Shown here piece by piece: positions 3,687-57,300 of a stretch of DNA of 64,000 nucleotides. The notes under the pieces were generated by a model. It did not search any database and was not told where the DNA came from. It saw nothing but the letters and a program-made list of their open reading frames with translations. Source of the DNA: a virus; IMG/VR virus record IMGVR_UViG_3300027741_000029, positions 52,400 through 116,399 of that record; one strand, written 5' to 3'. The position numbers and the translations under genes were made by a program. Every line of letters begins with the position of its first letter. Position 1 is the first letter of the stretch.

Positions 3687-4415
3687 ATGAAAGATTTTCT
3701 CACAGATATCGTTGCGCACACACAGGCACTTGGAGTCATTGATACTATCAAGGTTACTGGTACAGATCAATCTACCGTAATTGAAAGCGTGAGCGAAGAT
3801 CGTAGTGTTATTCTTAATGCTACATTTAATACAGCAAATGCCGCATTTACTGGCGTATTTGGTATGCCTAATTTGAGCAAACTTAATACTATTCTTAACA
3901 TTCCTGAATATAAAGAAAATGAAAGAATTGGTGTGGTAACACAGCCCCGCAATGGCGAAAGCGTTCCTGTTGGATTGCACTTTGAAAATGCAAGCGGCGA
4001 TTTCAAGAACGACTATCGTTTTATGACAACCGAAACTGTCAACGAGAAGTTAAAGACTGTTAAGTTCAAGGGTGCCAATTGGAATATTACCATGCAGCCA
4101 AGCGTTACTAACATTCAACGTCTTAAGTTTCAGAGCCAGGCTAACAGTGAAGAAAAGATGTTTACTGTCAAGACCGAAGGTACCGACCTAAAGTTCTACT
4201 TTGGTGACCATTCAACTCATGCTGGTAACTTTGTATTCCAAAGTGGTGTTAGCGGCAAACTTACTAAGAATTGGTCGTGGCCAGTGGGTCTATTCTTATC
4301 AATTCTTAACCTTCATGGCGATAAGAGCATTCAGTTCAGTGATGATGGCGTAGCCAAGATTACGGTTGATAGCGGTCTTATCAAGTATGAGTATCTTCTA
4401 CCTGCAAAGGCATAA
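3687..4415 (+). CDS. DNA polymerase sliding clamp (T4 gp45-like)
   Basis: 242 aa, two-domain beta-rich pattern ending ITVDSGLIKYEYLLPA, located near the polymerase. Resembles gp45-like clamps of large myoviruses (recalled). Confidence 0.7.
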   Translation: MKDFLTDIVAHTQALGVIDTIKVTGTDQSTVIESVSEDRSVILNATFNTANAAFTGVFGMPNLSKLNTILNIPEYKENERIGVVTQPRNGESVPVGLHFENASGDFKNDYRFMTTETVNEKLKTVKFKGANWNITMQPSVTNIQRLKFQSQANSEEKMFTVKTEGTDLKFYFGDHSTHAGNFVFQSGVSGKLTKNWSWPVGLFLSILNLHGDKSIQFSDDGVAKITVDSGLIKYEYLLPAKA

Positions 4416-6493: not shown

Positions 6494-6521
6494 TTGACAA
6501 ACCCGATAAATATGTTATATT
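6494..6521 (+). promoter_or_regulatory. early promoter, TTGACA-N16-TATATT with TGn extended -10
   Basis: TTGACA 6494-6499, TGT 6513-6515, TATATT 6516-6521, then ttatagtcaattGGAGA as in the 11-12.7 kb cassettes. Confidence 0.8.
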
Positions 6522-6548
6522 GGTTATAGTCAATTGGAGAGAACCACC

Positions 6549-6869
6549 ATGCGTAAAACCCTAGCAATCTTACTCGCAGCCGCAACATTATTTACCGCAA
6601 CGGCAGTAAATGCTGACTGGAACGGGCATCGTCATTATGGCGGTGGTGGTGGCAATGGTGGCAATTGGGTTGCTCCTCTGGTTGGTGGGTTGATTGTTGG
6701 TGGTATTCTAGGCGGTATGGCGCAACAGAACCAACAACAGTATTATGGTCAACCACAATATTATCCACAACCACAATACTATCAGCCGCAGACGTTTTGT
6801 CGCTTGGTTCCTGTGTATGATGCATGGGGCAATTATGTAGGTCGTCAACGTCAGTGCTGGCAACAATAA
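6549..6869 (+). CDS. exported Gly-zipper / Tyr-Gln-Pro-rich protein with signal peptide
   Basis: MRKTLAILLAAATLFTATAVNA signal peptide (AVNA cleavage-like), glycine zipper APLVGGLIVGGILGG, QPQYY repeats, C-terminal Cys pair CRLVPVYDAWG...RQC. Confidence 0.75.
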   Translation: MRKTLAILLAAATLFTATAVNADWNGHRHYGGGGGNGGNWVAPLVGGLIVGGILGGMAQQNQQQYYGQPQYYPQPQYYQPQTFCRLVPVYDAWGNYVGRQRQCWQQ

Positions 6870-6877
6870 GGTGATAT

Positions 6878-7321
6878 ATGGGATTTCTCGACAAACTACT
6901 TGGTAAATCAACAAACAATGACGCTAACGCTTCTGCTGTTGTTACAGAAAGCGCACCACTAGCCTCTACTAAAACTAGCACAAAACCTAAGAAACCTCGT
7001 AAACCACGTGTGAAGAAGGTTGTTGAGGAAACAACTGCTTCACAAATTGAACCGCAAGTCAAGGTTATAAAGTTTGACTTTGATCCTGCTAATCCACAAA
7101 TTGGTTCTATGGAACTTGATTGGAATGCAGAGTTTATTGAGATGCTACGTCAAAACGGCTATCGTGGTGTAAATCCAGAGGCACTCGTTGATGCGTGGCT
7201 AAATGATGTTGCTCGCAATATCATTAATAGTTCACAGCCAAGTACACAACAAAATCCTGACGGCACAAGCCGTTATGTCAATCGCCGTGATTTAGGTGAT
7301 GGACTCAGTGAATTCAGTTAA
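6878..7321 (+). CDS. hypothetical protein with Lys/Pro-rich linker
   Basis: GGTGA RBS; KTSTKPKKPRKPRVKK segment followed by a globular C-terminus. Confidence 0.7.
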   Translation: MGFLDKLLGKSTNNDANASAVVTESAPLASTKTSTKPKKPRKPRVKKVVEETTASQIEPQVKVIKFDFDPANPQIGSMELDWNAEFIEMLRQNGYRGVNPEALVDAWLNDVARNIINSSQPSTQQNPDGTSRYVNRRDLGDGLSEFS

Positions 7322-7324
7322 TAC

Positions 7325-7353
7325 TTGACAAACCCCTAACTAGGTATTATATT
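7325..7353 (+). promoter_or_regulatory. sigma70-type promoter TTGACA-N17-TATATT, ATG 6 nt downstream (leaderless candidate)
   Basis: TTGACA 7325-7330, TATATT 7348-7353, ATG 7360; no SD sequence in between. Confidence 0.7.
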
Positions 7354-7359
7354 AGTATT

Positions 7360-8361
7360 ATGAAATATCTTCTCGTAGATACAGCAAACCTGTTCGCTCG
7401 TGCACGTCACTCTACTGCACGTAGCGCAGATACTTGGCAAAAGATTGGATTGGCATTGCATATTATGTTCAATGTCATACAGAAAATGCATCGTCTGCAT
7501 AAGCCAGACCACGTTATCTTTGCTCTTGAGGCACGTAGCTGGCGCAAAGATCATAACACAACTTATAAGGCAAATCGTGCTGTTGTTAAGTCTAAGATGA
7601 CAGTTCGTGAAGCAGAAGAAGATAAAGAGTTTTGGGAAGTTTATAGTGAATTTACCAAATGGATTGATGAACGCACAAACTGCAGCGTAATTCGTGTTGA
7701 ACGTGCAGAAGCAGATGATATCATCGCTCGTTGGACTGCGCTTCATCCTAATGATGAACACATCATCCTATCCAACGATACTGATTTTTATCAGTTGCTT
7801 AGCGATAAGGTTACCATTTATAATGGTATGACCAATCAATATATCACTCTACAAGGTTTCTTTGAAGATAACGGCAAGACTGTTATGGATAAACTTACTA
7901 AAGCACCAAAGACTGTCGGTGATCCTAAGTTTATCCTCTTTGAGAAATGTATGCGTGGTGACCCCACAGATAATATTATGACTGCAAATCCTGGCGTTCG
8001 TACTAAGGGCAGTACCAAAAAGGTAGGTCTGGTAGAGGCTTATGCTGACCGTGATCGCAAAGGCTATGCATGGAATAATATGATGCTGCAACGTTGGGTT
8101 GATCATAATGGTGCGGAACACCGTGTGCTTGACCGATATGAAGAAAACCGTGTGCTTGTTGATCTCACTGCACAGCCCGAAGAAATTCGTGATGCTATTG
8201 ACGCTGCACTAATTGGAATTAATCCTAAAGAAAACCGTCAGATTGGTACACAATTGATTAAGTTCTGCTCCAAGTATGAACTTATTAAACTTAGTGAGAA
8301 TGTTCAACCTATTGCTGAAATACTCAGCAAACCACTTGTAAAGGAATATCAATATGCGTAA
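7360..8361 (+). CDS. rnh: RNase H / 5'-3' exonuclease (T4 Rnh, FEN1-like)
   Basis: Acidic motifs LLVDTANL, EADDIIA, SNDTDFYQL and RGDPTDNI are those of the PIN/FEN 5'-nuclease family. Confidence 0.88.
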   Translation: MKYLLVDTANLFARARHSTARSADTWQKIGLALHIMFNVIQKMHRLHKPDHVIFALEARSWRKDHNTTYKANRAVVKSKMTVREAEEDKEFWEVYSEFTKWIDERTNCSVIRVERAEADDIIARWTALHPNDEHIILSNDTDFYQLLSDKVTIYNGMTNQYITLQGFFEDNGKTVMDKLTKAPKTVGDPKFILFEKCMRGDPTDNIMTANPGVRTKGSTKKVGLVEAYADRDRKGYAWNNMMLQRWVDHNGAEHRVLDRYEENRVLVDLTAQPEEIRDAIDAALIGINPKENRQIGTQLIKFCSKYELIKLSENVQPIAEILSKPLVKEYQYA

Positions 8362-8563
8362 TTTTTTTGTAAAGTATTTTCCATGGGTAATTATCATTTT
8401 CTTTGGATATGAGATTTTTCACTATTGGAACCTTGACCAAGACCGTGTTCTAATGGATATCGTTGCTGCTATTGGTTGGGCTTCATTTATTGAAGTTCGT
8501 AGTGAATATAATTCATTTTTTGACATGATTGAAGGAAAGATTAAAGATGACACTCAAGGCTAA
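8354..8563 (+). CDS. small membrane protein
   Basis: Two hydrophobic stretches (FPWVIIIFFGYEIF; VLMDIVAAIGWASFI). Confidence 0.6.
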   Translation: MRNFFVKYFPWVIIIFFGYEIFHYWNLDQDRVLMDIVAAIGWASFIEVRSEYNSFFDMIEGKIKDDTQG

Positions 8564-9026
8564 AAACATTGTAGAAAATCGTTTCTGGATTATTGAAAAC
8601 GACAAAGGCGAACGCATTGGAAACATTGCGCAAACCAATAGCGGCGTTCGTTGCACAGTTAGTGATGTAGTAGAAGTATTTCCAAGTATGGCAGAAATGT
8701 CAGAAAAGAAAAATATCTCTATTGTTCGCAGAACTCGTGAACTTAAAACAAAAACAATTGATGGTGAAGTATATGGTTTTCCCACCAATCATACACCGCA
8801 CAATACGCTATGGAATGTAAAACTTAAACTTCCACTATACACTAAAAATGATAAGAGTAGTTCATTCTACTGTGCTGGTTATTATATTGTTAAGTATAAT
8901 AAATCATTCGTAGCAGAATATGCACCTAAACTTATTACGCTACAACGATATGAATATGAAGGTCCATTTAAGACCAAGTTGGAACAGCAAGAACGTTTAA
9001 GGATCATGAATAGTGAGACCGCCTAG
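8547..9026 (+). CDS. hypothetical protein
   Basis: Start moved to ATG 8547 (MTLKAK), which follows a GAAGGA RBS. Confidence 0.7.
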   Translation: MTLKAKNIVENRFWIIENDKGERIGNIAQTNSGVRCTVSDVVEVFPSMAEMSEKKNISIVRRTRELKTKTIDGEVYGFPTNHTPHNTLWNVKLKLPLYTKNDKSSSFYCAGYYIVKYNKSFVAEYAPKLITLQRYEYEGPFKTKLEQQERLRIMNSETA

Positions 9027-9237
9027 AACACATCATATTAGAGAATTTATTAATCGTGGACAAAACATTGTTGGCAATAACTTAGTTCTTGATAAGGAAA
9101 CCATTGCCAATGTTACAAAAGAACTTGCTGATGTTCTTGCACATGTGCTTGAACTTGAAAGTAAAATTGCAGAACTAGAAGAAAAAGTTCAGAATAACAA
9201 CGTTCTTACGGTTGAATTGGTAGGAGATAATTTTTAA
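9013..9237 (+). CDS. hypothetical coiled-coil protein
   Basis: GTG start overlapping the upstream stop; heptad pattern in the C-terminal half. Confidence 0.6.
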   Translation: MRPPRTHHIREFINRGQNIVGNNLVLDKETIANVTKELADVLAHVLELESKIAELEEKVQNNNVLTVELVGDNF

Positions 9238-9279
9238 ACCTAATTTCAATAGGCTAAATAATTTTAGCGAATACTCAAT

Positions 9280-9588
9280 ATGTCAAGACCTAAGCCTCAA
9301 GTACTACTTGAAATTACTAATAAACAAACATATAAGTCAGAACAAGTTTTGGCTAGCGAAGGCATATGGGCTATCTTCTTAGATAATAAGCCAGTTAATC
9401 TTAAAACTACAAGTATGTTAGCACAATATGCTGGTCCAAAATATAAGAAAAGTTCATTTTCAAATCCTGGTCACGCTATCAATCTTTGCAAGAAACTTAA
9501 TACACAATTCAAAACAACTCGTTTCAGTGTAGTTCTACTTAATAGTGGACCATCGGTTTATCCTGCAAAAAATGACACAAAAGTCTAA
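9280..9588 (+). CDS. hypothetical protein (TAAATA upstream at 9255-9260)
   Basis: 102-aa ORF with a candidate late promoter about 20 nt upstream. Confidence 0.7.
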   Translation: MSRPKPQVLLEITNKQTYKSEQVLASEGIWAIFLDNKPVNLKTTSMLAQYAGPKYKKSSFSNPGHAINLCKKLNTQFKTTRFSVVLLNSGPSVYPAKNDTKV

Positions 9589-9952
9589 GACCGATTGGAC
9601 ACATGAATTATATCATCTTGCACACGGTGAAGATGCGTTCATTCCACATATAAATCAAAAAAATATCTATATTCTTTATTGGTATAATAACAATAAAAAT
9701 TTTGGTTTCAGGCTCAATAACACTGCATTTGAGATTATGCGCAATGCTGGTTATAAATTCTATGAGCATCAAATTGACAGACGGAAGTATCAAATCAATG
9801 GCAAAGAACTAGTGTTAATGGATCGCTATCATAACCACCCTTGGTTTTACCAAATGAGCAAAGGTGAACTATTCCTAATGGATAGCGAACTCTCTATGAT
9901 GTTAGAACTTTGTGGTGGAAATTTAGGGCAAGCTATTCAAAATATGTCTTGA
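9572..9952 (+). CDS. hypothetical protein
   Basis: Likely start ATG 9572 (MTQKSK); its TGA lies inside the next -35 box. Confidence 0.6.
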   Translation: MTQKSKTDWTHELYHLAHGEDAFIPHINQKNIYILYWYNNNKNFGFRLNNTAFEIMRNAGYKFYEHQIDRRKYQINGKELVLMDRYHNHPWFYQMSKGELFLMDSELSMMLELCGGNLGQAIQNMS

Positions 9953-9976
9953 CAGATATATAATCCATGCTATATT
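9949..9976 (+). promoter_or_regulatory. early cassette promoter 1
   Basis: TTGACA 9949-9954, N16, TGC+TATATT 9971-9976, then cataatataagcaatgg and GGAAAGG RBS. Confidence 0.85.
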
Positions 9977-10002
9977 CATAATATAAGCAATGGGGAAAGG
10001 CA

Positions 10003-10122
10003 ATGCGCAGCGCAGAAGCAAGAGAATTAGCGAAACCGCTGTACCGTCAGCGAATAGTTCTTGCCAAAAAAGGCAAAGGCAGTTATAATCGTAAGAAGCA
10101 AAAGGAAACTAGCAATGACTGA
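10003..10122 (+). CDS. arfA: ArfA-like alternative ribosome-rescue factor, 39 aa (not in ORF track)
   Basis: My translation: MRSAEARELAKPLYRQRIVLAKKGKGSYNRKKQKETSND*. The core PLYRQRIVLAKKGKGSYNRK aligns ungapped to the E. coli ArfA core recalled as [20 protein letters not shown] (14/20 identical). RBS GGAAAGG directly upstream; stop overlaps the next ATG (ATGACTGA). Confidence 0.75.
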   Translation: MRSAEARELAKPLYRQRIVLAKKGKGSYNRKKQKETSND

Positions 10123-10762
10123 TACCATTTCTCTCAAAGATGCCATGACTGCCGCCGTAGCCGCCCAACGGGTTAATGGCAAGTATATCAAGCGTTATGA
10201 TGCCAAGGAAGGTGAACTTTCCAATGGCGCACTTATGCGTGAATTTCTCAATCCAGAAATGGTAAACTTTGACCATTTGCCACAAGACATTGAAATTGCT
10301 GATCAAATTCTAGAGTATCTTGATAGCAAAATGATTGAACTTATTGCTGGCACTCTCCATGATTATTGGAAGAATCTTGTCCTATTGACAGAACAAAAGG
10401 CAATTAATGCCAAGGATTTCAAGACCTTAGCCTTGGTTGCCAGCGTTCCTAACTCCTATTTTAACGCAATTGGGCGTGAAAAAGCGCAGGATGAACTGCG
10501 TGTTATTGCCGAAAATAGCCGTCATATTGGCAAGGTTGGCGACAATATTGAAGCAGATTTGACCATCAAATCAGCGGTTTATAGTGCCAACTATAACAAA
10601 TGGTATCATACCGCCCTCACTGCTGACCAAAATTTGGTCTGTTTTCCGCTGTCAGAACAGTTAAATCGGGGCGATATTATCGCTATTTCGGCTAGAATTC
10701 ACAAGCATGATGACAATAATCAGACCCGTTTACACTATGTGCGGATCAAAAAAAGTGCTTGA
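10115..10762 (+). CDS. hypothetical protein with C-terminal OB-fold-like domain
   Basis: True start probably ATG 10115 (MTDTISLK), coupled to the upstream stop. The C-terminal HIGKVGDNIEADLTIK...GDIIAISARIHKH...TRLHYVRI reads as an OB fold. Confidence 0.6.
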   Translation: MTDTISLKDAMTAAVAAQRVNGKYIKRYDAKEGELSNGALMREFLNPEMVNFDHLPQDIEIADQILEYLDSKMIELIAGTLHDYWKNLVLLTEQKAINAKDFKTLALVASVPNSYFNAIGREKAQDELRVIAENSRHIGKVGDNIEADLTIKSAVYSANYNKWYHTALTADQNLVCFPLSEQLNRGDIIAISARIHKHDDNNQTRLHYVRIKKSA

Positions 10763-10786
10763 CAACCCTTAAATCTGTGTTATATT
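10759..10786 (+). promoter_or_regulatory. early cassette promoter 2
   Basis: A-tract, TTGACA 10759-10764, N16, TATATT 10781-10786. Confidence 0.85.
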
Positions 10787-10816
10787 CATAATATAAGCAA
10801 TGGAAAGGTATACCCC

Positions 10817-11020
10817 ATGAACCACATCGAAGCCATCCGCATGGATTTAACCGCTCTTGAAGCCTCATATTCACTTTATATGGATACCGAATGTTATGAT
10901 GAAGCCAATATGGTATCAAAAGCCATCGACATGCAGTGGGGCTTGCTAATTGCGGCAATCCGTGCAGAAGACCCCCATACCACAGAAGCCGATATCCGTT
11001 ACTTTGAAAATAATGCTTGA
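10817..11020 (+). CDS. small early hypothetical protein
   Basis: Own promoter and GGAAAGG RBS; stop inside the next -35 box. Confidence 0.7.
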   Translation: MNHIEAIRMDLTALEASYSLYMDTECYDEANMVSKAIDMQWGLLIAAIRAEDPHTTEADIRYFENNA

Positions 11021-11044
11021 CAACTCCTAAATCCATGTTATATT
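11017..11044 (+). promoter_or_regulatory. early cassette promoter 3
   Basis: TTGACA 11017-11022, N16, TATATT 11039-11044, GGAGA RBS. Confidence 0.85.
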
Positions 11045-11073
11045 AAGTTATAGTCAATTGATGGAGAACACGG

Positions 11074-11244
11074 ATGCGCAATTCTTGGTCATTTTCTCAG
11101 TATCTTGAAGAAATCATCACCCTAAGCGAAATCGTTGAAATTCCTGGCATTGAGGAATCCCGTGCTTCTCTTATCACAGAAATGTGGGCTAAATTTCCTA
11201 AAGAATGTGTGGCAATCGGTCTCACTGACGGGGTTAAAAAATAA
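11074..11244 (+). CDS. small early hypothetical protein, 56 aa (not in ORF track)
   Basis: My translation: MRNSWSFSQYLEEIITLSEIVEIPGIEESRASLITEMWAKFPKECVAIGLTDGVKK*. Fills the space between promoters 3 and 4; GGAGA RBS. Confidence 0.75.
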   Translation: MRNSWSFSQYLEEIITLSEIVEIPGIEESRASLITEMWAKFPKECVAIGLTDGVKK

Positions 11245-11247
11245 CCC

Positions 11248-11275
11248 TTGACAGCCTCTAATTCTGTGTTATATT
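11248..11275 (+). promoter_or_regulatory. early cassette promoter 4
   Basis: TTGACA 11248-11253, N16, TATATT 11270-11275. Confidence 0.85.
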
Positions 11276-11301
11276 ACTAATATAAGCAATGGAGCGGCGA
11301 A

Positions 11302-11580
11302 ATGGCACAAGTAAGCACCCGTAAGGCTAAGATTTCCACTATCCTTCATAACCGTTATTTTACCAAAGGTGTACAGGATGCGGTAGCAGGTCGCCCATTT
11401 GACCCCGATTATGACAAGTGGGAAACTGCTTCTCACGGTGCCGCACAGTGGTGTTACGAGCGTGGTCGCCAATATGGTATTGCCACAGGCGGTAAAGTTC
11501 CTACTAAAACTGGTAAGCGAATTAACTATTTTGCTATTCGTGAGTTTAACCGTCTTTACCATGATGGTTCAATTATCTGA
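11302..11580 (+). CDS. small basic early hypothetical protein
   Basis: GGAG RBS, own promoter. Confidence 0.75.
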   Translation: MAQVSTRKAKISTILHNRYFTKGVQDAVAGRPFDPDYDKWETASHGAAQWCYERGRQYGIATGGKVPTKTGKRINYFAIREFNRLYHDGSII

Positions 11581-11590
11581 TAAAAAGTGC

Positions 11591-11618
11591 TTGACAACCC
11601 CTAAATCCGTGTTATATT
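11591..11618 (+). promoter_or_regulatory. early cassette promoter 5
   Basis: TTGACA 11591-11596, N16, TATATT 11613-11618. Confidence 0.85.
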
Positions 11619-11648
11619 AAGTTATAGTCAATTGATGGAGAGCGAGAC

Positions 11649-11894
11649 ATGACTGCCACCGATCTTACGATGTTTGGTATGACCAAAGCCGATATCCGTG
11701 ACCAATATATTAACAGTATCTCTGCCAAACTGGTTGGCGTGGAGATGGTCGTCATGGGTATTCTTTCCGATTGTCAGGAAATGATGGCTAGGCGGAATCC
11801 AACAATTCCGCACCCAAATGTAGATGAATTTATCCGTCAGCAGATGAATATCGCTAAGTTTATTCTTAGCGAAATGATGCAAAAAACTGCTTGA
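11649..11894 (+). CDS. small early hypothetical protein
   Basis: GGAGAG RBS; stop inside the next -35 box. Confidence 0.75.
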   Translation: MTATDLTMFGMTKADIRDQYINSISAKLVGVEMVVMGILSDCQEMMARRNPTIPHPNVDEFIRQQMNIAKFILSEMMQKTA

Positions 11895-11918
11895 CAAACC
11901 GCAATTCTGTGTTATTGT
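11891..11918 (+). promoter_or_regulatory. early cassette promoter 6
   Basis: TTGACA 11891-11896, N16, TATTGT 11913-11918. Confidence 0.8.
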
Positions 11919-11949
11919 TATAATATAAACAGTGCAACGGAGAATTTAA

Positions 11950-12243
11950 ATGCAGTTGATCCCAACCAATCGCTTTGATAAAAAACTGTTCGTCACCACG
12001 GGTGATTATGTTTTTTATGGTGCTGAACGCCGTTTTGTTGCACGTTTTAAACATTCTAAAAGCCCCTTTACTAAAGCAAAGTTCATCAAGGAACTGATTG
12101 CCAACCATACTGTTGAAGGCTACTTCATGGCTCTTGAACACAACCATCAGGCACCGCTTAATATCCTTCGTGACAAAAACGAGGACTGGTATTTTGAAAT
12201 TCTTGAGGAATTTTCTGGTCGTGATCTGCGGAAAGCAGCATAA
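11950..12243 (+). CDS. small early hypothetical protein
   Basis: GGAGA RBS, own promoter. Confidence 0.75.
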   Translation: MQLIPTNRFDKKLFVTTGDYVFYGAERRFVARFKHSKSPFTKAKFIKELIANHTVEGYFMALEHNHQAPLNILRDKNEDWYFEILEEFSGRDLRKAA

Positions 12244-12251
12244 TTTTTTGC

Positions 12252-12279
12252 TTGACATACCCCAATTCTGTGTTATTGT
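12252..12279 (+). promoter_or_regulatory. early cassette promoter 7
   Basis: TTGACA 12252-12257, N16, TATTGT 12274-12279. Confidence 0.8.
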
Positions 12280-12308
12280 TATAATATAAACAGCAACGGA
12301 GATTTCCC

Positions 12309-12635
12309 ATGGATATGCAATCTGGTCTCGCCGCTATCATTGAAAAGTCCAAAGCCGATTATCTTGCTTGGAATGGCAATCGTACTAATGATCCAATCGT
12401 CGCCAAGATGATTGAAGAATATAATGCCTCACTCCGCATTGAGGAAGGCAGCAAATATTTCAAGATTGTTCAGCGTAATTCGGTGCATTCCTTCGTGGTT
12501 AAGAAGGATGGTGGCAAGTTCCGTGCTGGCGATATCTTGAAGCCTGCTTCGTGGCGTTCGCCTGCTATAAACTTTGCTCGTGGCAATGTTCTAGACGGTA
12601 CTCTTGATTGCATTCGTTGGACGGGTGCGCTGTAA
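12309..12635 (+). CDS. conserved-looking T4-like phage hypothetical protein
   Basis: Motif GDILKPASWRSPA...ARGNV, recalled from many T4-like phage early proteins; function unknown. Confidence 0.7.
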   Translation: MDMQSGLAAIIEKSKADYLAWNGNRTNDPIVAKMIEEYNASLRIEEGSKYFKIVQRNSVHSFVVKKDGGKFRAGDILKPASWRSPAINFARGNVLDGTLDCIRWTGAL

Positions 12636-12644
12636 AAAAAGTTC

Positions 12645-12672
12645 TTGACAGAACAAAATAATATGCTATATT
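12645..12672 (+). promoter_or_regulatory. early cassette promoter 8
   Basis: A-tract, TTGACA 12645-12650, N16, TGC+TATATT 12667-12672, GGAGA RBS. Confidence 0.85.
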
Positions 12673-12701
12673 AAATTATAGTCAACTGATGGAGAAACAC
12701 A

Positions 12702-13832
12702 ATGGCTAAGAACACTGACAATGCACTTTCAGAAGTGCGCACGGTTACCCTCGCTGCTGCAAAGCGTGAGGTCATGGTTTGCGCTCGTCGCAAGCGTCCT
12801 GTATTCCTTTGGGGTGCGCCTGGTATCGGTAAGTCCGAACTCGTTGCAGACCTTTGCGAAAGCATGGGTGGCAAGTTGTATGACTTGCGTCTTGCACTCA
12901 TGGACCCTTCTGACTTGAAGGGCGTTCTCTACTACAATCCTACTGTTGGCAATGCTATGTGGAATGCGCCGCCTGATCTTCCTTCTAAGGAAGAGGCTGC
13001 TCAGTATCCTGTAGTGTTCCTGTTCCTTGACGAAATGAACTCTGCTGCACCAGCAACACAGGCTGCTGCATACCAGTTGGTTCTCAATCGTCGTGTTGGC
13101 ACCTATGAGTTGCCTGAGAACGTTGTTATCGTTGCCGCTGGTAACCGTGACACTGACCGTGGTGTAGTCTATCGTATGCCATCGCCACTTGCCAACCGTT
13201 TTGTTCACTTGAACTTGCGTGTTGACTTTGAGTCGTGGAATGATTGGGCTATCAACCATGCCATCAATCCTGATGTGGTTGCCTATGTCACCTGCAACAA
13301 GAACGACTTGTTCAACTTTGATCCTCGCTCGTCAGGTGCATCGTTTGCTACGCCTCGTTCGTGGTCGTTTGTCAGTGAGTTGCTGCAAGAAGACCTTAAC
13401 GATACCGAACTCAATGACCTTGTATCTGGTACGGTTGGCGAAGGTGTTGCACTCAAGTTTGCTGCCCATCGTAAGGTTGCAAGCCAGATGCCTAACCCTA
13501 GTGACATTTTGTCTGGCAAGGTCAAGGATTTGCGTACTAAGGAAATCGGTGCCAAGTATTCTCTCACGGTCTCTTGCTGCTATGAGTTGAAGGACTCGTT
13601 TGACAAGCGTGGCGGCGAGCGTATGAAGGAAAACGATATCGTTGCATGGCACGAAGAACTTGACAACGTGTTCCGTTTCTACCTTGACAACATGGACACC
13701 GAGTTGCAAGTTATGATGCTTGCTACTATCCTTCGTAACTACAAGCTGCCTATGAAGACTAGCCGCTTGAAGAACTACAAGGATTACCATGCAAAGAACG
13801 GTGACTACATCCTCGCCGCTGTGCGTGACTAA
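12702..13832 (+). CDS. MoxR-like AAA+ ATPase
   Basis: Walker A GAPGIGKS, Walker B LFLDEMN, sensor AAGNR, arginine finger LANRF, TPRSW. Confidence 0.92.
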   Translation: MAKNTDNALSEVRTVTLAAAKREVMVCARRKRPVFLWGAPGIGKSELVADLCESMGGKLYDLRLALMDPSDLKGVLYYNPTVGNAMWNAPPDLPSKEEAAQYPVVFLFLDEMNSAAPATQAAAYQLVLNRRVGTYELPENVVIVAAGNRDTDRGVVYRMPSPLANRFVHLNLRVDFESWNDWAINHAINPDVVAYVTCNKNDLFNFDPRSSGASFATPRSWSFVSELLQEDLNDTELNDLVSGTVGEGVALKFAAHRKVASQMPNPSDILSGKVKDLRTKEIGAKYSLTVSCCYELKDSFDKRGGERMKENDIVAWHEELDNVFRFYLDNMDTELQVMMLATILRNYKLPMKTSRLKNYKDYHAKNGDYILAAVRD

Positions 13833-13872
13833 TTCTCTCGCCCCATCGTTCTCCATCAGTGAGGGCGAGACT

Positions 13873-13904
13873 ATAGGGGGGTAAATTACCCCCCTATTTT
13901 TTTT
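13873..13904 (+). terminator. rho-independent terminator
   Basis: ATAGGGGGGTAA-A-TTACCCCCCTAT inverted repeat followed by a T8 run; a second hairpin (tctcgccc...gggcgaga) lies just upstream. Confidence 0.9.
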
Positions 13905-13905
13905 C

Positions 13906-13933
13906 TTGACAACCTATATAATTGTGGTATTAT
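13906..13933 (+). promoter_or_regulatory. early promoter 9
   Basis: TTGACA 13906-13911, N16, TGG+TATTAT 13928-13933, GGAGA RBS before ATG 13961. Confidence 0.8.
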
Positions 13934-45321: not shown

Positions 45322-48300
45322 TCATTTCGTTGCTCTTATAAATTGTGCATATTGAGTAGTGCTAGATTGTAAACTTTCATTGAAATTTGTAAAAATCTTG
45401 CCTTGTTTAATTGTACTATTAGCTGTTACGAGTATACTAGTAACAAAAGATACTGTATTGCTCAATAGCAGATTTCCAGTAGATTTAGTTGTCAGGTTTG
45501 CAGTAAGATTGGCACTCAACTTGACACTACTATTACCTTTATATATATTAGTTACAGTAGTATTTGAAGGAATAATACCACTTATGTTAGAAAATACATA
45601 TTGATTTAATGAGATATTGGTTATGTCATTTAAGGCAATAACATTTGTTCCGCTATAAGCATTTGCACTAATAAATTTAACATTTGTAGCACCACCACCT
45701 AGATATGTGTCATTTGGTGTGACAACATATGTATCACGACTATTTGGTATTTCAAGAGTGCTGCTGCTATCAATCACACGGGTGCCACTAACATATAGAT
45801 TAGCTGCACCAGTTCCACCTGTTGAACGACGAACATTGCCTAAACGTTTATTAACCGTATCTATTAGACCATATGTAATACGCTCACCGTTAATAACAAC
45901 AACGCCTGCTGTATTAGTGATTGGTTCTGGGCTTTGAAGAGTGGTAATATCACTTACATAAATCCATTGATCAGTAATATGTAAATTTGCTGCCAAGAAT
46001 GTTTCACGTGCAGAACGAACCGCATAATAACGAGTATTATCATTTAGGTCTTTGAATATACGATATTCTAGTGTAGTTTCACGCACAGGTTCACCAAAGA
46101 TACGAACCCCAATAACACTTGTTGAACTTATTGTAAGTTCACTGCTTAATACTACGATTGTTGGCGTAACGAGTCTAAAATCACGATATGGCAACAGCGG
46201 CAATCCACCAGTTGTATTTGGAGATTTAAGAGTCATATACAATTGGTTAATATTTGTTACTGCACGTGGCAGAGTATAATATATGGTACCAATGAAATTA
46301 CTTAATTCATTATCAAATCCAACTGTGTCAAACCCAGTCGTATCAAGACCATTATCTATTACACTTGTGTTATTAGTATCGCCACTAAACAACTTAGTAT
46401 ATTGTTGATTAACATCGTGATTTCCTTGAGTAAAAACTGTTAATTTACTAGGTATAGAAATGTTAACCGCAGGATTAATCCAAAGTTGGTTGCCATCATA
46501 AATTTTAAAATCACTTTGGCTGCTATCGCTGAATACGATTAAACTTCCACTATTTGGTGCAACGGTAAATTGCACAATTGGCATAGCAACATTTGTAGGG
46601 TCATGATATATTGTATAGTCAATATTGTTTGTTTGTAAAACATTATCTATCAACACCATTACTTCTGCATCTGTAATATTAGCAATATTTTCTACCCAAC
46701 TATTAGTTAAACTAAAGTTTTTAGTAATACCATCGCCAATATTATATGTTTGTTGTGGAGGCAATAGGTCACTGCCATTCAAACGAACAATCGCATACGC
46801 ACTGATAGGTTGTGCATATATTTCTGGATTGTCTATTGTAAAGTTATAACCAGTTGGATAATTTGCTGAAGTAATAACAAAGGTTTGCTCATATATTTCA
46901 CTGTATGCACGAGTTCCAAGTGGAACTCCATATAAATGAACTTGAACATAATCATTAGCATTTGGTGCAGTATTAAAACGAACTGCTAATATTCCCCTAC
47001 TATTTTCTAATTTATTAACCAATGTCCAATTGTCAACCTTGATACCATTTACTTTGACATATGCTTGTTCAACACTATTAAGTGTCGAATCATCTATATT
47101 AAAGTCAGTTTGCACACCATCAGCATAATAATCTTGGTCAAAGATTGGACTTTCACCATTACTACCAAACATCATAACATAGAAAAATGTTCCTACTTGG
47201 GGTTCATATACGGTAGTAATAGTTTTTGTTTGATAGTTTATAGTATAGTGATAAGTTTCAGCAATTGGTCCAAGCGCACGGTCAATTACATAGAATTTCT
47301 CAATACCACCCAGTGGATAATCAACACCAGTAACTAGTGGATCAAAACTAAACGTTTTACTTCCAACATAGTTAGATGTAAAGATTTTAATGTCTGGACC
47401 ACCATTTTGTATAGGAAGTGTCTTGACCTTGATATCTAAGGTATCGTTAATGATACTTGGCACAAATTCTTCTGGTGCATGGCTGCTATAAGTGTCAGTA
47501 AAAGCACCGCCGTCTACATTAATATCTTGTGGACGCAGCCCCAAACCAGTATCTGTGAAGAGCGAACGAATAATAGTATCTTCGGTTTGTGAACCATAAA
47601 CATCATATACGTTTTCCACATCTTTTGTAGCTAGATCATATGCAATGCTATCATAGTTATTAACATCATAACCAGGAGTTTGATTAAATGCTGGTCCTAA
47701 AATTTGATTACCAGAATACTCAATTCCTACCATTACTTGTGCAAGATCACGACCAGCCATTCCGCTTATTGGTGCATAATATGACCATACACGGTCACAT
47801 GCATTATCAAGCCATAGTCCATTATATGCTACCAAGCTGGCAGTATCAAAATTAAGATTGGATGTAAATGTTTCTGTTGCAACATAACTTGTATTTTTGT
47901 AAACAACAACATCATTTATTGCATATAAAGTTTGTGGATACCAAACTTTAACACGCAATTCTACAAACTTGGTAAAGTCAAATGTAGAACCACTAGTATG
48001 ATTAGTAATAACACGATATGGTTGCGCTTCATACACAATAACTGTATTAATCGTATAGGCAGTATTAGCAGCCCAATCAATAACTGTATTGAAATAAGAA
48101 ATACGATCAAATTTAATATAGGTGTCTAGGGTACGAGTTAATCCGTTTCCAACAATAGCAACAGCCTTAGCGCCAGTTCCTACACCATTGATTTGAACTG
48201 TAGCATATGTATAGTTGACACCATTATTTGTAACAACAATAGTATTTACTGCACCATTAACAATATATGCACGTGCTGTGGCACCAGTTCCATCGCCATT

Positions 48301-51300
48301 GATTAAAACTTCGGTTGTTCCATCATAACCGCTTCCACCATCAACAATGTCAACGAGTCTGACATTATATTTGTGGTTGATAACCCAAGGTTGATAAAGC
48401 GCCTGTGTTGCCAATATAGTTGTATCAAGAGTATTTCCTAATTGTGGGCTGCGATATTTTTTTATTACTGTATTATAATAAGGTTGCAGATCAAAATCAG
48501 TGGCATTTGTATAAGCATAATCTAGTGCATTATTATTATCATACTTTGCAACATACTGTTTGAGTTTAGTATGGAATGGTTTAACTTCACTGAAGAAATC
48601 TGTAACAGTGTTTTCTGGTTGTGGAAGATAAACAGGAAGCTGATCCAAACCACGAACACGATGATATAGGTCAACAAATGAAGTTTTCATCATCCAATCT
48701 GTTTGTAGATGTTGACTTGCAATTGTGTCAATCATCAATGTCAGAGTTTGTTTATACTCAGTTCTATATTCATTTGTTAACAAATAATTAGTAACAACGT
48801 CAAATATTCTATTAAATTCTAAATTACTATCAGTGTCAAATCCAACTGCTTGGAATGAACTTGTTTGGAATCCTTGTCCAGCAGCAACCTGACTATAAAG
48901 GTTTTCTTTGAATTGAATAGTAGCATTTTGCTGCGCAAGCAATTCAAGATTTGCGTAGTTTACAAGAACAATTTTCCAACCACCATTTGTACTATTACGA
49001 ACATAAATTATATCATTTACATTAAGTGATAGTTGACTAATATCACTTTCGTTATCTACTGATGTTGTGATAGGAACTAATGGATTATAGTTAGCACTAT
49101 ACCAATCACTATAACTCCAATAATCATTTAGATTATATGTTTGAACTTGATATGTTTCCCAACTTCTAGTATTTGGGAATTTTACAATCAAGCGGTTTAA
49201 ACTCCAACCATTGTTATGTGTGTTGCTATCTTGTAACACAAGCACACTATCGCCAGCAGCATATGTATTTTTGTCAAGATAACCAAGTTCAGTTATATTA
49301 GCAACTACTGTTTTATAAGTGCCGCTGCTTGGTAGTGGATCGCTGTTGTTTAGTGCAGCAATTGCCTCACTACGAGTTAACACCATTGGATATGTTTTAC
49401 ATATATTGTTAATTTTTTCTACGTAAAGCTGACGAGCAAAATACTGATTATTAAACAAACTTTGACGAGGAGCAGTATCCATTCCATACTTTTGACCAAT
49501 TGGTAGATTAGGATCAGGAATGATACGACCGCTTGCATCTTGACCAGTTAAACTATCATTTAGTTTATTGATAAATTCAATGGCAACACCAAGATCAGTG
49601 CCATCATCAAACATTGTCCATTCACTGTGAACAAGTTGTGGTTTTAAAGTATCTTTATATTCAATTACAAGATTTGTATCATCTGTGATAATATTCTGTG
49701 CATTGAATACAGCAAATGCATTAGTTCCAACAATGGCAGCAAACGGTTCACTGCTGTTTCTAGCATTAGCAATATAACTTTGAAGTTCAAGAGCGCTTGG
49801 ACGACTGCTATTAGTGCTATTGGTACTGTTATGAATCCAGAAATAGTATTTTGTTACTGGTTGACCAGTATTTTCATCAATTACTATTTGGCTACTATAT
49901 ACATCATTTACTGTATAAAGTGGTTGAGTTAGTGGGTAACTTGTTGCATAATCTTTAGGCAACTGATCACTTTCAATCCATTCATAAATGGTTACAGTAC
50001 TAGCAGGGAAAGCAAGCCCCCACTTGTTAAATTTTTCAAGAGTATTGCCCTGTGAAGCATCATAGTATTTTATGCTATTGGTATCCCACCAAAGTGTTCC
50101 AACTTTTTCACTTCCCCATGCATTTTTACGATCATATGCAAAACTTACAGTTGTAGGAACATGATTATAAACGGCTGGGTCATAGTTGATTGTATAATCA
50201 ATATAACTTTCGGCACTGTTCGGTAGTGCACCATGTGTTAAATCATATACTGGCAGATCAGCAATAAGTCTGCTGCTTTTAGTATTGTATAGATAAACAC
50301 GCTCTACAATTCTGCTATCAAACTTTTCACCTTCACTGCGAATATTTTTCCAAATTGGTTGTGCATTCTTGTTATAGTAAACATACATTGCGCCGGTATT
50401 GTTGCCAAGAATCTTAGCATATGGAGCGCCTACTAGAATAAAATTATTGCTAATATCAACACCACTAGCATATCTGTCAAGCGCACCAGCAAACTTGTCG
50501 TTAAGTAACGTTGCATATGCAAAACTGCCTTGATCGCTTGCTGTTTCAGTAGCACTAGTTTGATATTCATAAACATGTGCTGCACCACTGCGATAAACAA
50601 TGTCTACATAACGAACAGTGGCACGGTCAAATGTTGTTTTTGCGCTATCAAATGTGGTAGTAATACGAGTATTTGATAGGGTACTGCCAACAACCAACGT
50701 ATTTGCATCTGGACTTATGCTCAGTATTTCACCAAATCTTGCGGTATCTTGCACAAGTGGATTGAACATTTTTTGTACAGATTGCCATTGGTCAATACCC
50801 ATTGTTGATAATGGATTACCATATTCATTACGCATGTATATCTTGCTTGTTGAATGCAGATCGCTGCTACTAATATAAATTGCGCCGTTGCTTATTACAC
50901 CAGCAGTTATATAAGGAATCTTTGCTGCATTAATAGTGTTTGCTGCTTGATATACATCGCTGTTGTAATAAATTGTAGAATATGGCGGTCTTAAAGTTTG
51001 ACCAAATGTTACAAGGTAATCATTAATACGAATACTGCTGTTTGCAGTAACTATGAAATTAGTTTTATTACCAACAATATTGCCATACATTCTTGGAACA
51101 TTTACAAGACGATATACTGCACCATTTTGTGAACTGCTTTGTGAATAACCAGGCGCACTACTAAACGCTAGGCTACCGTTTTGACTTAGTTTAACTGCTT
51201 GACCAAAGTTACTGTTTTGTTGACCAACATCTGTAGTTGCAATTTTAATAGGTATAAACTGATTAGTTTCTACATTAACAATGCTTCCACTGCTTGGAAT

Positions 51301-54300
51301 AGCTGCCAATACAACCTGATTTGTAGTATAGTTGAATGTAGCTGCAACATTTGCACCATCAACAGTTACACTAGGATGTGTAATTACATTTGGTGTGGTA
51401 ATAGTAGTCAAACCAACAAGAGCATTGCTTAATTGGAATGTGCTTGTTGTGCCAGTTGCTACAAAATTTTCAGCAGTGCGTTCAAATACATATGTTTTGC
51501 CTGCATTAGTATAAGAAGTATCTGTTGTTGCAGTGCTGCCAGGCGCACCAATTACAACAATTCTACCGTCGTTGTTTGTGCTTACACTGGTGCCAAATCC
51601 ACTTACTTCAGGATCATCTGTAATAATACGGTTTACTTCAGTAAATGAACTTTCATATATCAGATTAATAATTGAATTATTTGGAGGCGCAACGTCAAAA
51701 GTAATTGATTCTTGTGATGGGGTTTTAATATAATCCAAACCAGGAACCTTTAGAACACTATTAACATACACTTTAATATCACGAGCACTTAGATTTAATC
51801 CAGTTGCATTAATAGGATATGAGAATGAAGTACTGCTGCCATCACCTGTGCGTGTACTTGTTGCAGCTACTGCTACATTGCTGTACTTGTAAACATATAC
51901 ACTGTTTGTTGCTGGTTCGCCAATGAATAACCAATTTCCATCGCCGCTTGCGCTTATGCTTGTGCCAAATGCACTGCTTGGCGTAACGTTAGGATAAATT
52001 CCAATTTTTTGGTTTGCAGAAATAGTTGCAGCATTTGTTAATCCAATCAAATTGTAAGCACTTCCAATTGAAAGGTTTGAAATAACAGTTCCATTGGCAA
52101 TGTTTGCACCAACAATTGGCTGTCCGTTCGCAACGCCATATAGTGACTGATATCCATTAACAATAAAATGTGAATTATTTGTTGTTGTTGCTGCTGAAGT
52201 AATAGATTGAGTAATACCTAAATTTGAACCAACAAAAGTAAGTAGGTTTCCAGTTGGTGTAGTTACATTACTACTAAGAGTAAGAACTTTATACCCTGTA
52301 ATATTACTGATACTTTTAATATATGTCCCAACTGGAATACCGTTACCTAAAACTGGCATAGTATTTGCCACAATTCCAGTGATAGATTGACCAGTATTTC
52401 CAATGTAAACATTGGCGTTGCTGCTTGTAATATTTGCATAAAGAGTAGTAAAGATTGAACTATTGGCAGTTAATATAGTAGCAGCATCACTAAACTTAAG
52501 TGTGGCATTTTTAGACATTGTTATGTCATTTAAAGCTGCCACAGGAGTTAGATTAGCAATAGTAGTTCCACTTGGAATGCCTGCACCCACTACTTTCATA
52601 CCTACTGCAAAGTTTGCAAGACTATAACTTGCAGTTTGTGCAATATTTGCAGTTGTGCTTAGTGTTGCAGTTGGACTAATCAATATATAACTATTGCTTG
52701 TGCTAAATCCAGCACTTAACACATATAGATTATCATAGTGAATTGCTTGATTTAGACTAACTTGCTGACTGTTAACAACAGCAGTGTACACAATACCTTT
52801 ATTGCCGCTTGGAGCAGCAATAATAGCAATGTCATTGCCGTTAATATCGACATTAGCGCCAAAGCTAGCCGAACTATTTGCAGGAGTTAAAATTCCAATT
52901 TCTTGCCAAGTATCATCTTGTTTTTTACCGTAAACAAATGCTTGACCTGTTGTATTTCTACTACTTGCACCAACAACAGCAAATCCTTGATTGTGATTTA
53001 TCTTTACGCTGCTGCCAAAATTATCGGTTGGTTTTGTAAACACAGGACTGCGTGTGTCATTATATACCCAACTATTTGTATTTTGTTTTACAGCGTATCC
53101 ATCAGGTCCATTATCAATATAAACAATTTCACCAGTTTGCCATCCACGTACAGGAACAAATGCGGCGAAGTCATTAACTGTGCTATAACGAACATTGATT
53201 AATTTAAACAACTGTGCGTTTAATTGTCCGCTGCTAATAGTTACATTGTTATTGATTTTAACAGTAAATGTTGTATTAGTTACTGCACTAATGCGATAAA
53301 ATCCACTTAGATCAGCAATACTGCTTGTGCTTTGTGCACTGTTAATCTTTGCATTTCTTAACATAACATAATCAAGGTTAACAAGATTATGTGCACTATT
53401 TGTAGTAAAAGTAAGTTCAGTTGGGCTAGTATGTGATACGCCAATAACAAATACACGACCAGTTTGGCTTAAGCGATACACGCCCCATTGATTTCCGCTA
53501 TCTGCAGCAATCCAAACTTTACTGCTTTCGCCCATTACAGTATTCAATCCACTAATATTGTAAATTTTGCTAATATCAAATACAGTTGCGCTTACATCTG
53601 CAGTGTTTACAGGACCAGCATATGGAATTATTTGCTTAGATGGTTCTGTTTGAGCAAAGATATTAGTTTTATAGGTTCTTGGACGAATAACCAAATCACT
53701 TGGCTTGACAGTATTGTATATGTCACTTCTTGCATCGCTTTGATTTGTAAATTCAAATAGATATTGGTTATTGATTGCTATAGAATTTCCAATACTAAAC
53801 TCTAGTTTATCTGTATTAGCGGTTCCACCATAGTTGCCAAGTTTAATTGCCCACTGTTCACTAATACGTATATCACTATCAATACGTTTTTGTTGATTAC
53901 GCAAGAAAGCATTTAGAACTGCTTGTGTTCCTTTTTGTGCAATCATACCAAGATAGAACTTATATTGACTTGTTATATCTAATCCAAGATCAGTAAAGTA
54001 TTGGCGGCTGGTAAATCCAGTTTCGTGTTTACCAAGTAAATCGGCTGCGCTATTTAAATCTGCTGCATCAGGATTATGGAAGTTGGCAAATTGAGCAGCA
54101 CCCGATGCCATATTTGGAATAAGTTCTTTGTCAAGTAAAGAACCATTAATCGGATACCAATCACTGATCGCAAATTTTTGTGTACCAGGAATAAATTTTT
54201 GTGCAGCAAAGTATTGATTCTTAAGCAGAACAATATCGCCAGTATAATAATCAGTATAACTTACCCATTGTGGAATCTCGCTTACATTTACAAAGAAACC

Positions 54301-57300
54301 TGGTGCATAAAGTGAACCATTCCAATCTTGAGTTTTTGCGCCATCTACACGAAGACGGAACTGACGACTACCAACTTGCTCATCATAAAGAATATCATTG
54401 AACACTGTATTATTATCAAATATAATAGTGTGTTCATACTGAACAATAGCAATATCTAAAAGATGTATACCTTTTTGTGCATTCTTCAATTCTATAGAGA
54501 ATGTATTGTCATCACGATAAACACGATAATCACGACCTGTTAATGTTGTATTATCACTGTCTACAACTTTAGTATAGTTGTTTGTATTAGAAATAGTATC
54601 AACAATTCCATATGGTGATGAGAAATTAAGTTTAGTTCCAGCAGGTGTTAAACTGATTACAGTGTCATTACCCCAATTTTGTTGGTTCCAAAATAAAAAT
54701 TCTTTTGCTGCAAGTGTCCAATCACTTTGTGTTGTATTATCAGCAAGGAAGTTATTGAATGAAAAACCTTGGCTGGTTAGATAACGACCATAACTTACAA
54801 GAAAATCTACAACTTGTTGCTTGTTATTAAATATTGAACCATATGGATAAGATGCTACGGTATCTTCGCTGTCCTTGTAAATGATAGCGGTTTCACTTCC
54901 AACACTAATTCCATAGTTGTTGGCACTTACACGGCTAGGTATAGTCAAGAAGTACGGGCGTGCTTTGTCAAATCCAGTTACTTGATATCCACCAGTTACT
55001 TTTTTAACAATTACTGCACTATATACAGCACGAGCAACAGGAGCACTCTTGGTTACCTTAACACGATAGTTTTCTTGCGGAATAATAACACTACTGTTTG
55101 TGCTTTGTGGACTTACTTGGTCAGCAACAATAGTTAGATAACTCTTGTCTGTGTATGCACCCATCTTATAAACAAGATTGAATGTGCTGTTTCTAGCAAT
55201 ATTAATCCAATTCTCATTGACATCTAAGTTATTGCTGACAAGATAATCACGAATCCAAACATTGATACCTGGTATATAATCATTAGCATCAGTAATACTG
55301 TAATCAAATACACGACTATTTGACTTACTATTGATTATTTGATTTAAATTGCTGTTGTATGTTAAGTCACGAGTATTGTACTTTAGCGCACAGTATTCTG
55401 CTGGTCTTGCCAATGCCCATGCAATTTGTACTGCAAATGGATAGCTGCTGCTACGACGCCATGCAGTTTCTTGTGGACTTTGATCACCAACTCGCCAATT
55501 AAGTGCAGCATCATTTGAATTATAATTTACCACAACGCTCTGTAGCGGTGGAAGTAGATTACCATGACTATCTACAGGTATGATCTTACTCAAGCCTGTG
55601 CGAGTATAACTGCTATTAATATAACTTTTATTTGGCGCACCATTATAAACAAAACCAAGTTCTAAATCACCCCAGAGAACACTGTTTTCACTGCTATATG
55701 GCGCTGGACCATAGCGGTTATCCCACCATGTTGGTTTTTCTGCAAATCCTAGCATTTCCCAAGGATTGGTATGTGGACGATCAGTATCATAGAAATAATT
55801 ATAGATACCACGCCAATAACCAGGCACAGAATTACCAAATATCTTATCAACACCGCTGCTATAATTGTAGGTGAATACATCATTGGATACAGTTGTATTT
55901 GTAAAGATATCTACATTGTTGGAATTACTCCAACGTAAATATTCTGAACTTAACAATTGTGTCCATTCAGGAAAACTATAATCACGCACACGGAATGCAC
56001 CTGGTTCTACGCTTATTAAGTCATAATCAGTATTGTTAGCATAATCAACTGTTAAATTGTTATAAACACGCTTTTCAAATTCAAGCAAGATATTATCACG
56101 ATAGTCACCATATCCAACTGTGAAGCTGCCATCGTGACCAACGATACCAAGAATGCCATTGCCTTCACCTGATACTGCATATGTGTTATCGTAAACGATT
56201 TCAGGTTTAAATTTTGGATAAACACCAAGTTTAGTTGGAGTAGCAGGTACGTTGCAACCTTGAGTTGATTTATATTCATTGGTAACGATTTTATCACCAC
56301 GACTCAAAGTTACGCTGCTATTGATTACAATAGTAGCGCCAGATATAGTATAATCTACATTATTAATAAGCAATACGCCGTTTAGATAAACAAGAACTGC
56401 ACGATATTCTTTTGTTGCATTTGTATAAGATTCTGTAAGGTTATATGTACGATAAGTTGTATTTTGAACAGTGTAACTATTTTCAACATAATTTTTTCCA
56501 CCTGCTATCATATCAGTATAATAGAATGTAGAATTGCTATTGGTTGTTTGCGCAAATTCACTTAAAATATCATCAATATTATCACGATAGTTAGATGGGT
56601 CGGGAAATTCTCGTTTATTAATATAGTCAAGCAATTGATTTTTGAATACTGCATAACTATCTGCACCAAAACGAATTGCTGCAATTGGATCAACATCATT
56701 GTTGGCATACATTAATGCGGCTGGTCGTAAACTTGCGCTATGTTGCAGCAATTTACCGCCAACATAGTTAAAGTTTAAATCACGGAAATTATTGCTGCCA
56801 GCAGGTTCACCTTGCAGATTTTGTAAATTATTACCAATTTCAATAAGGTGGTTACGAATTTGTCCAAGCGTAATAGTAGTAAATTCTGTATTCTCACTGT
56901 TATTGGTTAAGTTGCGAGGCATAGTATATGTTTGTTTATATGCGGCACTAGTGCCAAATATCTTTACGAATACTCTATCGCCCACAGAAAGATCATATGT
57001 GAATACTATCTTACTAGTAATAGAACTTGTTTGTAGTGTATATGTGCCTTTTTGTAAAACATTATTAACATAAACAAATACGTTGTTTTCATAATAACTG
57101 TTAGCGTATACAACACCTAAGTCAAAATTATTTTTCTGAACACCAGTTGCAGAAAAAGTTTTTGTTATATATTGTTTGCTCTTATCTTGAACACGATACC
57201 AACCATTGGCAAAGGTATAATTATTCCAACCCTTGATAACCGCAGCATATCCAATGTTTACATTTAATACTTTGTCTGCTTGGTTTAGATTATAGTTAAA

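Follow-up and report, generated by a model that had tools for sequence, protein, structure and literature searches.

Bacterial arfA is translated from mRNA that has been cut or terminated before its stop codon, and in this way tmRNA keeps ArfA low. In E. coli ArfA, the A18T substitution abolishes activation while binding is retained. The contact roles of the E. coli residues were taken from Demo et al. 2017 (PMC5378476) and from a review (PMC8012679) and were mapped onto the phage protein described here by alignment. In these accounts the folding of the E. coli minidomain (residues 2-16, with an Ile11-Ala18 core) is coupled to the opening of RF2, Ala18 packs between Ile11 and C1914 of h69, Pro23 stacks on A1492/A1493, Leu24 and Phe25 form a hydrophobic patch on RF2 Trp319, Val198, and Phe217, and residues Q27-E30 augment the beta-sheet of RF2 domain 2 (PMC5378476, PMC8012679). 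The E. coli protein is active if truncated at Asn47 and inactive if cut after Met40 (PMC5378476). A second small factor, ArfT of Francisella tularensis, has 40 aa, ends at a real stop, and has no non-stop regulation, and in vitro either RF1 or RF2 can serve as its partner in ribosome rescue (PMC6299226). Among alphaproteobacteria, arfA was found in 0 of the 2,376 genomes surveyed, and Caulobacter is stated to lack ArfA (PMC11633108).

As a kind, phage ArfA genes are already known, widespread, and sometimes annotated. GenBank contains 39-aa "alternative ribosome-rescue factor" genes in Brevundimonas jumbo phages, and the annotated cases considered here are the following.

BAMBUS_05560 of Brevundimonas phage vB_BpoS-Bambus: 39 aa, annotated as ArfA-type.
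g10 of Citromicrobium phage RXM: 60 aa, annotated as ArfA and discussed as ArfA in PMC8953757.
p093 of Ochrobactrum phage vB_OspM_OC: annotated as "putative ArfA", adjoining a T4-like RNase H gene.

In addition, gp30 of pelagiphage HTVC027P, which has an ArfA domain, is reported to be highly transcribed both early and late (PMC12753301).

The window, that is, the whole 64-kb stretch of viral DNA analysed here, is assigned to an uncultured giant (jumbo) phage related to T4. The features of its arfA locus are as follows.

9949..9976, + strand: sigma-70-type early promoter, near-consensus (TTGACA, 16 nt, TG-n-TATATT).
9977..10002, + strand: conserved leader with a ribosome-binding site (RBS), GGGG 7 nt before the arfA ATG.
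10003..10122, + strand: minimal arfA gene (P0001, 39 aa), running from ATG to a real TGA at codon 40.
10115..10762, + strand: gene overlapping the arfA stop (215 aa), with no Pfam family.

An earlier sequence-only reading had proposed this small gene, and its open reading frame (ORF) and translation were reproduced exactly, the product being MRSAEARELAKPLYRQRIVLAKKGKGSYNRKKQKETSND. The promoter and RBS that it had been credited with were also found: the promoter matches the consensus at 11 of 12 positions, carries an extended -10 element, and lies 27 nt upstream of the ATG. The proposed coupling of the stop to the next gene is likewise seen in the overlap of the arfA TGA (10120-10122) with the ATG of the following gene (10115-10117), as ATGACTGA. 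The promoter is identical in the relatives L005, L013, and L014, and at the RBS position L005 and L014 have GGAG compared with GGGG here. The module to which these signals belong (TTGACA, 16 nt, TG-n-TATATT, a conserved leader, and GGAG, with one or a few small genes per copy) is present in ten copies on the + strand, from 6494 to 13906, and just once elsewhere in the window. Its leader exists in two versions, ATAATATAAGCAATGG or TTATAGTCAATTGATGGAG, and the arfA leader motif ATAATATAAGCAATGG is found again in the cassettes at 10759 and 11248. The region from 6494 to 13933 is a genuine promoter-per-gene early array, and the early type of the promoter ahead of arfA was read correctly. The gene had also been described as the first of the array; it does open the stretch in which the promoters are densely spaced, but that stretch is preceded by two module copies (6494 and 7325).

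E. coli ArfA has a hydrophobic C-terminal tail, and its gene has an RNase III or terminator hairpin, whereas the phage gene has none of these and ends at a real stop instead, in line with the earlier statement that it has neither the tail nor the non-stop design. The folding energy of the arfA RNA (9985-10180) was no better than that of shuffled sequences (z = 0.08), and an Rfam search of the window produced no gathering-level match. With its own stop at codon 40, no tail, and no special RNA structure, arfA should be expressed whenever its promoter fires; the same stop, together with the lack of an internal hairpin, should free it from the tmRNA-dependent repression of bacterial arfA. The phage copy also differs from the ArfA (YhdL) of E. 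coli and of other gamma- and betaproteobacteria in being phage-borne and in lying behind an early promoter. What sets it apart from the annotated phage ArfAs is that it belongs to a T4-related jumbo phage and lies there in an early array with a promoter for each gene. The ArfAs of Bambus, RXM, OC, and HTVC027P share the minimal build and the motif of the window copy, but they are about 50-60% identical to it or lower and belong to different phage lineages.

P0001 matched the Pfam ArfA model (PF03889) with 38.8 bits, the gathering score being 25.5, and an E value of 6e-10; the match spans P0001 residues 11-34, corresponding to model positions 20-43 of 44. In a search of the PDB sequences, the sole meaningful matches were E. 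coli ArfA chains from ribosome structures (5MGP, 7OJ0, 5U4I, 5MDV, and 5H5U; E value of about 3e-4), and the phmmer alignment to these chains gave 14 of 20 identities in the E. coli core, the same count as had been made from the sequence alone. Profiles were then compared for 28 minimal forms (A6) and 12 canonical gammaproteobacterial ArfAs from genome loci (A5). The hhalign probability for the minimal against the canonical profile was 98.7% (E value of 4e-16), and PF03889 was matched by all 28 of the sampled minimal forms. The proposed ArfA membership was therefore upheld, and by alignment P0001 is a true, shortened ArfA relative. Since phage residues 1-38 align ungapped to canonical ArfA residues 12-49, P0001 is best described as canonical ArfA without residues 1-11 and without everything past about residue 50. 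An NCBIfam search with P0001 gave no match, and in PHROGs there was a weak match alone, to phrog_20887 (function not assigned). Long proteins of 562-1552 aa among the top matches of an exhaustive representative search were discarded, as Pfam identified them as TPR-repeat proteins with summed repeat matches. Searches by tblastn with the SAR11 and Bambus proteins gave no match, even to the gene of the Bambus phage itself, which we ascribe to the low-complexity filter, and they therefore carry no information.

Conservation of the gene was followed in IMG/VR, where at least 81 viral contigs carry 37-53-aa ArfA homologs, 12 of them representing the same phage lineage. In all 12 of these lineage relatives the pair formed by arfA and the downstream gene lies between the same flanking genes, and the smaller cassettes further downstream vary. 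P0001 is 100% identical in nine related contigs, with 0-3 synonymous and no non-synonymous changes in the gene, and the 300-nt flanks in these contigs are 82-87% identical in most cases. The ArfA of the relative L014 has three conservative replacements. These data bear on whether the gene is a chance ORF or a decayed remnant without function, as its very short length and the match to half of the Pfam model might suggest. We give this explanation almost no weight, given that the Pfam score exceeds the gathering cut-off at an E value of 6e-10, that diverged relatives show synonymous changes only, that the promoter, leader, and Shine-Dalgarno sequence are conserved, and that the family is large.

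Several variations were observed among the viral contigs. The small cassettes g10817, g11302, and g11950 of the array are present or absent, depending on the relative. In L036 (4001-4114) and L022 (4001-4120), ArfA is just 63-67% identical and the flanking proteins are mostly 72-94% identical. The slot is thus filled by a different, much more divergent arfA allele, which suggests allele replacement at a fixed position. In two IMG/VR contigs, L041 (~3980-4125) and L065, the encoded ArfA has a full N-terminal minidomain but only a short tail, and it ends at a real stop after 48-50 aa; phages therefore hold both full-N and minimal ArfA.

When the E. coli contact residues were mapped onto P0001, the earlier description of a kept core was found to apply to KKGKGSY, the RF2-pairing strand, and the Pro/Leu/aromatic positions, but it had missed the loss of canonical residues 1-11. 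E. coli Pro23 is kept as phage P12, and Leu24/Phe25 are kept as L13/Y14. The strand Q27-E30 is kept, by alignment, as Q16-V19, with RQR(V/I) shared and Glu30 replaced by Val19. The channel-binding KKGKGSY is identical in the phage protein, where it is likewise predicted to bind the channel, and is followed by NRKKQK. The basic tail has four further basic residues and reaches the equivalent of E. coli Asn50, past Asn47, the shortest active E. coli truncation (PMC5378476).

At the other end of the protein, there is no counterpart of E. coli residues 1-11, which form part of the N-terminal minidomain. Thr7/Lys8, which bind h44, are missing from the phage form, as are Gly9 and Ile11, both invariant in the 12 canonical ArfAs. 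E. coli Ala18 falls on phage Arg7, as the sequence-only reading had cautioned, and the position is Lys or Arg throughout the minimal family. With Ile11 absent, the constraint on position 18 is gone, which accounts for the replacement of Ala18 by Arg. Leu19, part of the hydrophobic patch, is replaced by Glu8. Two defining features of the ArfA family, the minidomain and synthesis from a non-stop mRNA, are thus absent from P0001, and the loss of the minidomain is common to the whole minimal subfamily. Because residues 1-11 are missing and Ala18 and Leu19 are replaced by Arg and Glu, RF2 activation cannot proceed exactly as it does in E. coli.

Taking these observations together, we favor the reading, with a probability of roughly 0.6, that P0001 is a constitutive, early-expressed, RF2-dependent ribosome-rescue factor. 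The promoter would be read by the host RNA polymerase, giving constitutive early synthesis of an ArfA-type factor. The basic tail K22-K34 (KKGKGSYNRKKQK) would enter the mRNA entry channel, left empty in ribosomes that have stalled at the 3' end of a cut or truncated mRNA, and R15-V19 (RQRIV) would extend the beta-sheet of RF2 domain 2 by one strand. The short N-terminal helix (Leu9, Pro12, Leu13, and Tyr14) would then face the RF2 switch loop at the decoding centre, and RF2 would open and hydrolyse the peptidyl-tRNA, with no stop codon required and no SsrA tag added. The phage would gain in that ribosomes on host mRNA that had been degraded, or on mRNA cut by a defence RNase, would be quickly freed at the start of infection. 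The ORF with its signals, its conservation, its ArfA membership, and the pattern of kept and lost segments come from the data; that the protein binds ribosomes, that it recruits RF2 and activates it although residues 1-11 are missing, and that the phage benefits are inferred. A precedent is given by Francisella ArfT, which shows that a small unregulated rescue factor of ~40 aa can be fully active (PMC6299226). A complex prediction for the 39-mer (alignment A3) with RF2_ECOLI, in which E. coli RF2 served as a stand-in, gave a score of 0.06, the mark being 0.32; as the binding of ArfA to RF2 takes place solely on the ribosome, this value counts neither for nor against the scheme. If the minimal form is active, residues 12-50 would suffice for ArfA function, and the protein would be a compact reagent for studies of RF2 activation.

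The loss of the minidomain keeps two other explanations alive. According to the first, P0001 binds the channel without activating: it would fill the vacant mRNA channel, and perhaps dock closed RF2, with no hydrolysis. It would then act as a competitor keeping tmRNA-SmpB off non-stop ribosomes, with the result that phage products escape SsrA tagging or that host rescue is modulated. The retention of the tail and of the RF2-docking strand, combined with the loss of residues 1-11 and an Arg at position 18, would be consistent with such A18T-like behavior. We nevertheless regard this as unlikely, since trapped ribosomes and trapped RF2 would harm phage translation too, and since the N-terminal helix residues Ala6, Leu9, and Tyr14 are conserved in the minimal family, indicating that the helix does something.

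According to the second, the partner is altered, and P0001 would recruit RF1 as well as RF2, in the manner of ArfT, or another hydrolase, through a contact other than the minidomain. By its published description, ArfT resembles the phage form in length (about 40 aa), in its real stop, in lacking non-stop control, and in its basic C-terminal motif. The size and unregulated design of ArfT (40 aa, real stop, and a basic KKGG-type tail) speak for this explanation (PMC6299226), as does the fact that the elements behind strict RF2 dependence are only partly kept in P0001, Leu19 being replaced by Glu and the minidomain lost. ArfT itself differs in having little sequence similarity to ArfA and in acting with either RF1 or RF2 (PMC6299226). 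Against this explanation, P0001 belongs by sequence to ArfA and not to a family of its own, and it conserves both the strand that pairs with RF2 and the equivalents of Leu24/Phe25, which contact RF2 Trp319. An altered choice of partner consequently appears improbable to us.

A scan of genomes showed that the minimal build of P0001 also occurs in bacteria, with at least 30 Pelagibacterales loci among the 80 matches listed. The representative locus is given here.

L131:2992-3105, + strand: SAR11 ArfA-family gene, also present at L145, L142, and 27 more Pelagibacterales loci (L085-L163).

Most of the SAR11 loci encode 38 aa (a few 33-48) of the type MKKRNIFAKDLFSKKYRKRVVKPKKGKGSYNRKKIKKV and end at a real stop, and all of the sampled SAR11 members matched PF03889. 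The SAR11 and phage proteins have the same length, boundaries, and real stop and are 50-54% identical; the SAR11 genes differ in being chromosomal and syntenic, and their products are richer in lysine, with Lys at the position of phage Pro12. In the three genomes checked, arfA lies directly after a response-regulator gene and beside genes for a pfkB-kinase, endonuclease III (nth), and dapB. Because the locus is the same in three different genomes, the SAR11 arfA is a native gene and not phage contamination. Among the papers searched, none mentions a SAR11 ArfA, and the survey cited above lists no alphaproteobacterial arfA (PMC11633108). The supposition that the hosts rely on tmRNA and ArfB should be limited, given that a native 38-aa ArfA of this build exists in SAR11, which are alphaproteobacteria.

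The presence of the short build in streamlined, free-living SAR11 is the best available argument that the build is functional. It also bears on the explanation that P0001 binds the channel without activating, since streamlined genomes would hardly be expected to retain an inhibitor of this short build at a conserved place in the chromosome. Beyond the rescue function that we favor for P0001, it is conceivable, although doubtful at present, that the 37-50-aa minimal ArfAs constitute a distinct functional subfamily that covers canonical residues 12-50, native to SAR11 and widespread in phages of Alphaproteobacteria, with activation of a release factor that requires neither the minidomain nor tmRNA-linked regulation. 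If this were true, ArfA-type rescue would possess two activation modes, not one, and phages would deploy minimal ArfA at the very start of infection, either reclaiming ribosomes or blunting RNA-cutting defences. Provided that the minimal form is active, phages would also give a host such as Caulobacter, in which ArfA is stated to be missing (PMC11633108), a way of terminating translation that does not depend on a stop codon.

The pattern linking minimal ArfA, SAR11, and phages of Alphaproteobacteria is of more interest than the single gene. The gene in the window had been presented as hidden, and this description does not stand for public data: JGI already names a 39-aa ortholog, P0003 (90% identical), "stalled ribosome alternative rescue factor ArfA". 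Nor is the gene novel as a kind, as phage ArfA genes had been annotated before, one of them, HTVC027P gp30, being reported as transcribed. The window gene is one more well-supported example and not a new principle.

Further relatives were observed in cultured phages. An unannotated ArfA-like ORF (…SKRNPIAKALRSSHLQPKIVKPRKGKGSFTRKGK) lies in an intergenic gap of Caulobacter phage Cr30 (L167:1147-1299, + strand), two genes upstream of a T4-type RNA ligase gene. Roseobacter phage CRP-212 has an unannotated 41-aa ArfA-like ORF (MRQKNPVAKILRTPRYRQRKVMPKKGKGSY…; L003:1480-1605, + strand) that is out of frame within the 3' end of the annotated 1203-aa gp38, so either gp38 is over-called or the two genes overlap. 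In Sinorhizobium phage phiM12, gp232 (L165:292-432), annotated as hypothetical, is a 46-aa relative that has lost the GKGS core (…VVKSKKTYNRKK…), and the copy of the phiM12 group is a degenerate or re-purposed variant.

The cultured phages found with the gene all infect alphaproteobacteria, their hosts being Brevundimonas, Caulobacter, Citromicrobium, Ochrobactrum, Sinorhizobium, and Roseobacter, in addition to the host of the pelagiphage (PMC12753301). Among the genes of the window is one for a T4-type family B DNA polymerase (PolB), whose best matches, at 45-49% identity, are in Sinorhizobium phage Phosso, Agrobacterium phage Atu_ph07, and Vibrio and Erwinia jumbo phages. Since all cultured carriers of the gene infect alphaproteobacteria and PolB is nearest to that of Sinorhizobium/Agrobacterium jumbo phages, an alphaproteobacterial host is plausible for this phage as well. 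Inference of the host from composition or from promoter type was rejected as too weak. A megablast search of 8500-13500 against cultured phages gave no match, and no tRNA or tmRNA genes were found in the 64-kb window. A MoxR/VWA pair is also encoded there. On the - strand, a 4839-aa ORF was observed at 45322-59841, followed by a 1136-aa ORF at 59844-63254, for which a Pfam scan gave no match.

Two neighbors of arfA were also characterized. The upstream one is the following.

7360-8361: RNase H-like 5'-3' exonuclease gene, 1.6 kb upstream of arfA.

The 215-aa gene downstream, whose start overlaps the arfA stop, occurs in this phage lineage alone, with homologs on contigs of up to 348 kb. Modeling of its product with an alignment gave a pLDDT of 88, compared with 36 for the single-sequence fold. 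The model consists of a helical N-terminal part and a C-terminal OB fold, the latter with a generic likeness to S1/IF1-type and other nucleic-acid-binding OB domains (Z up to 8.9).
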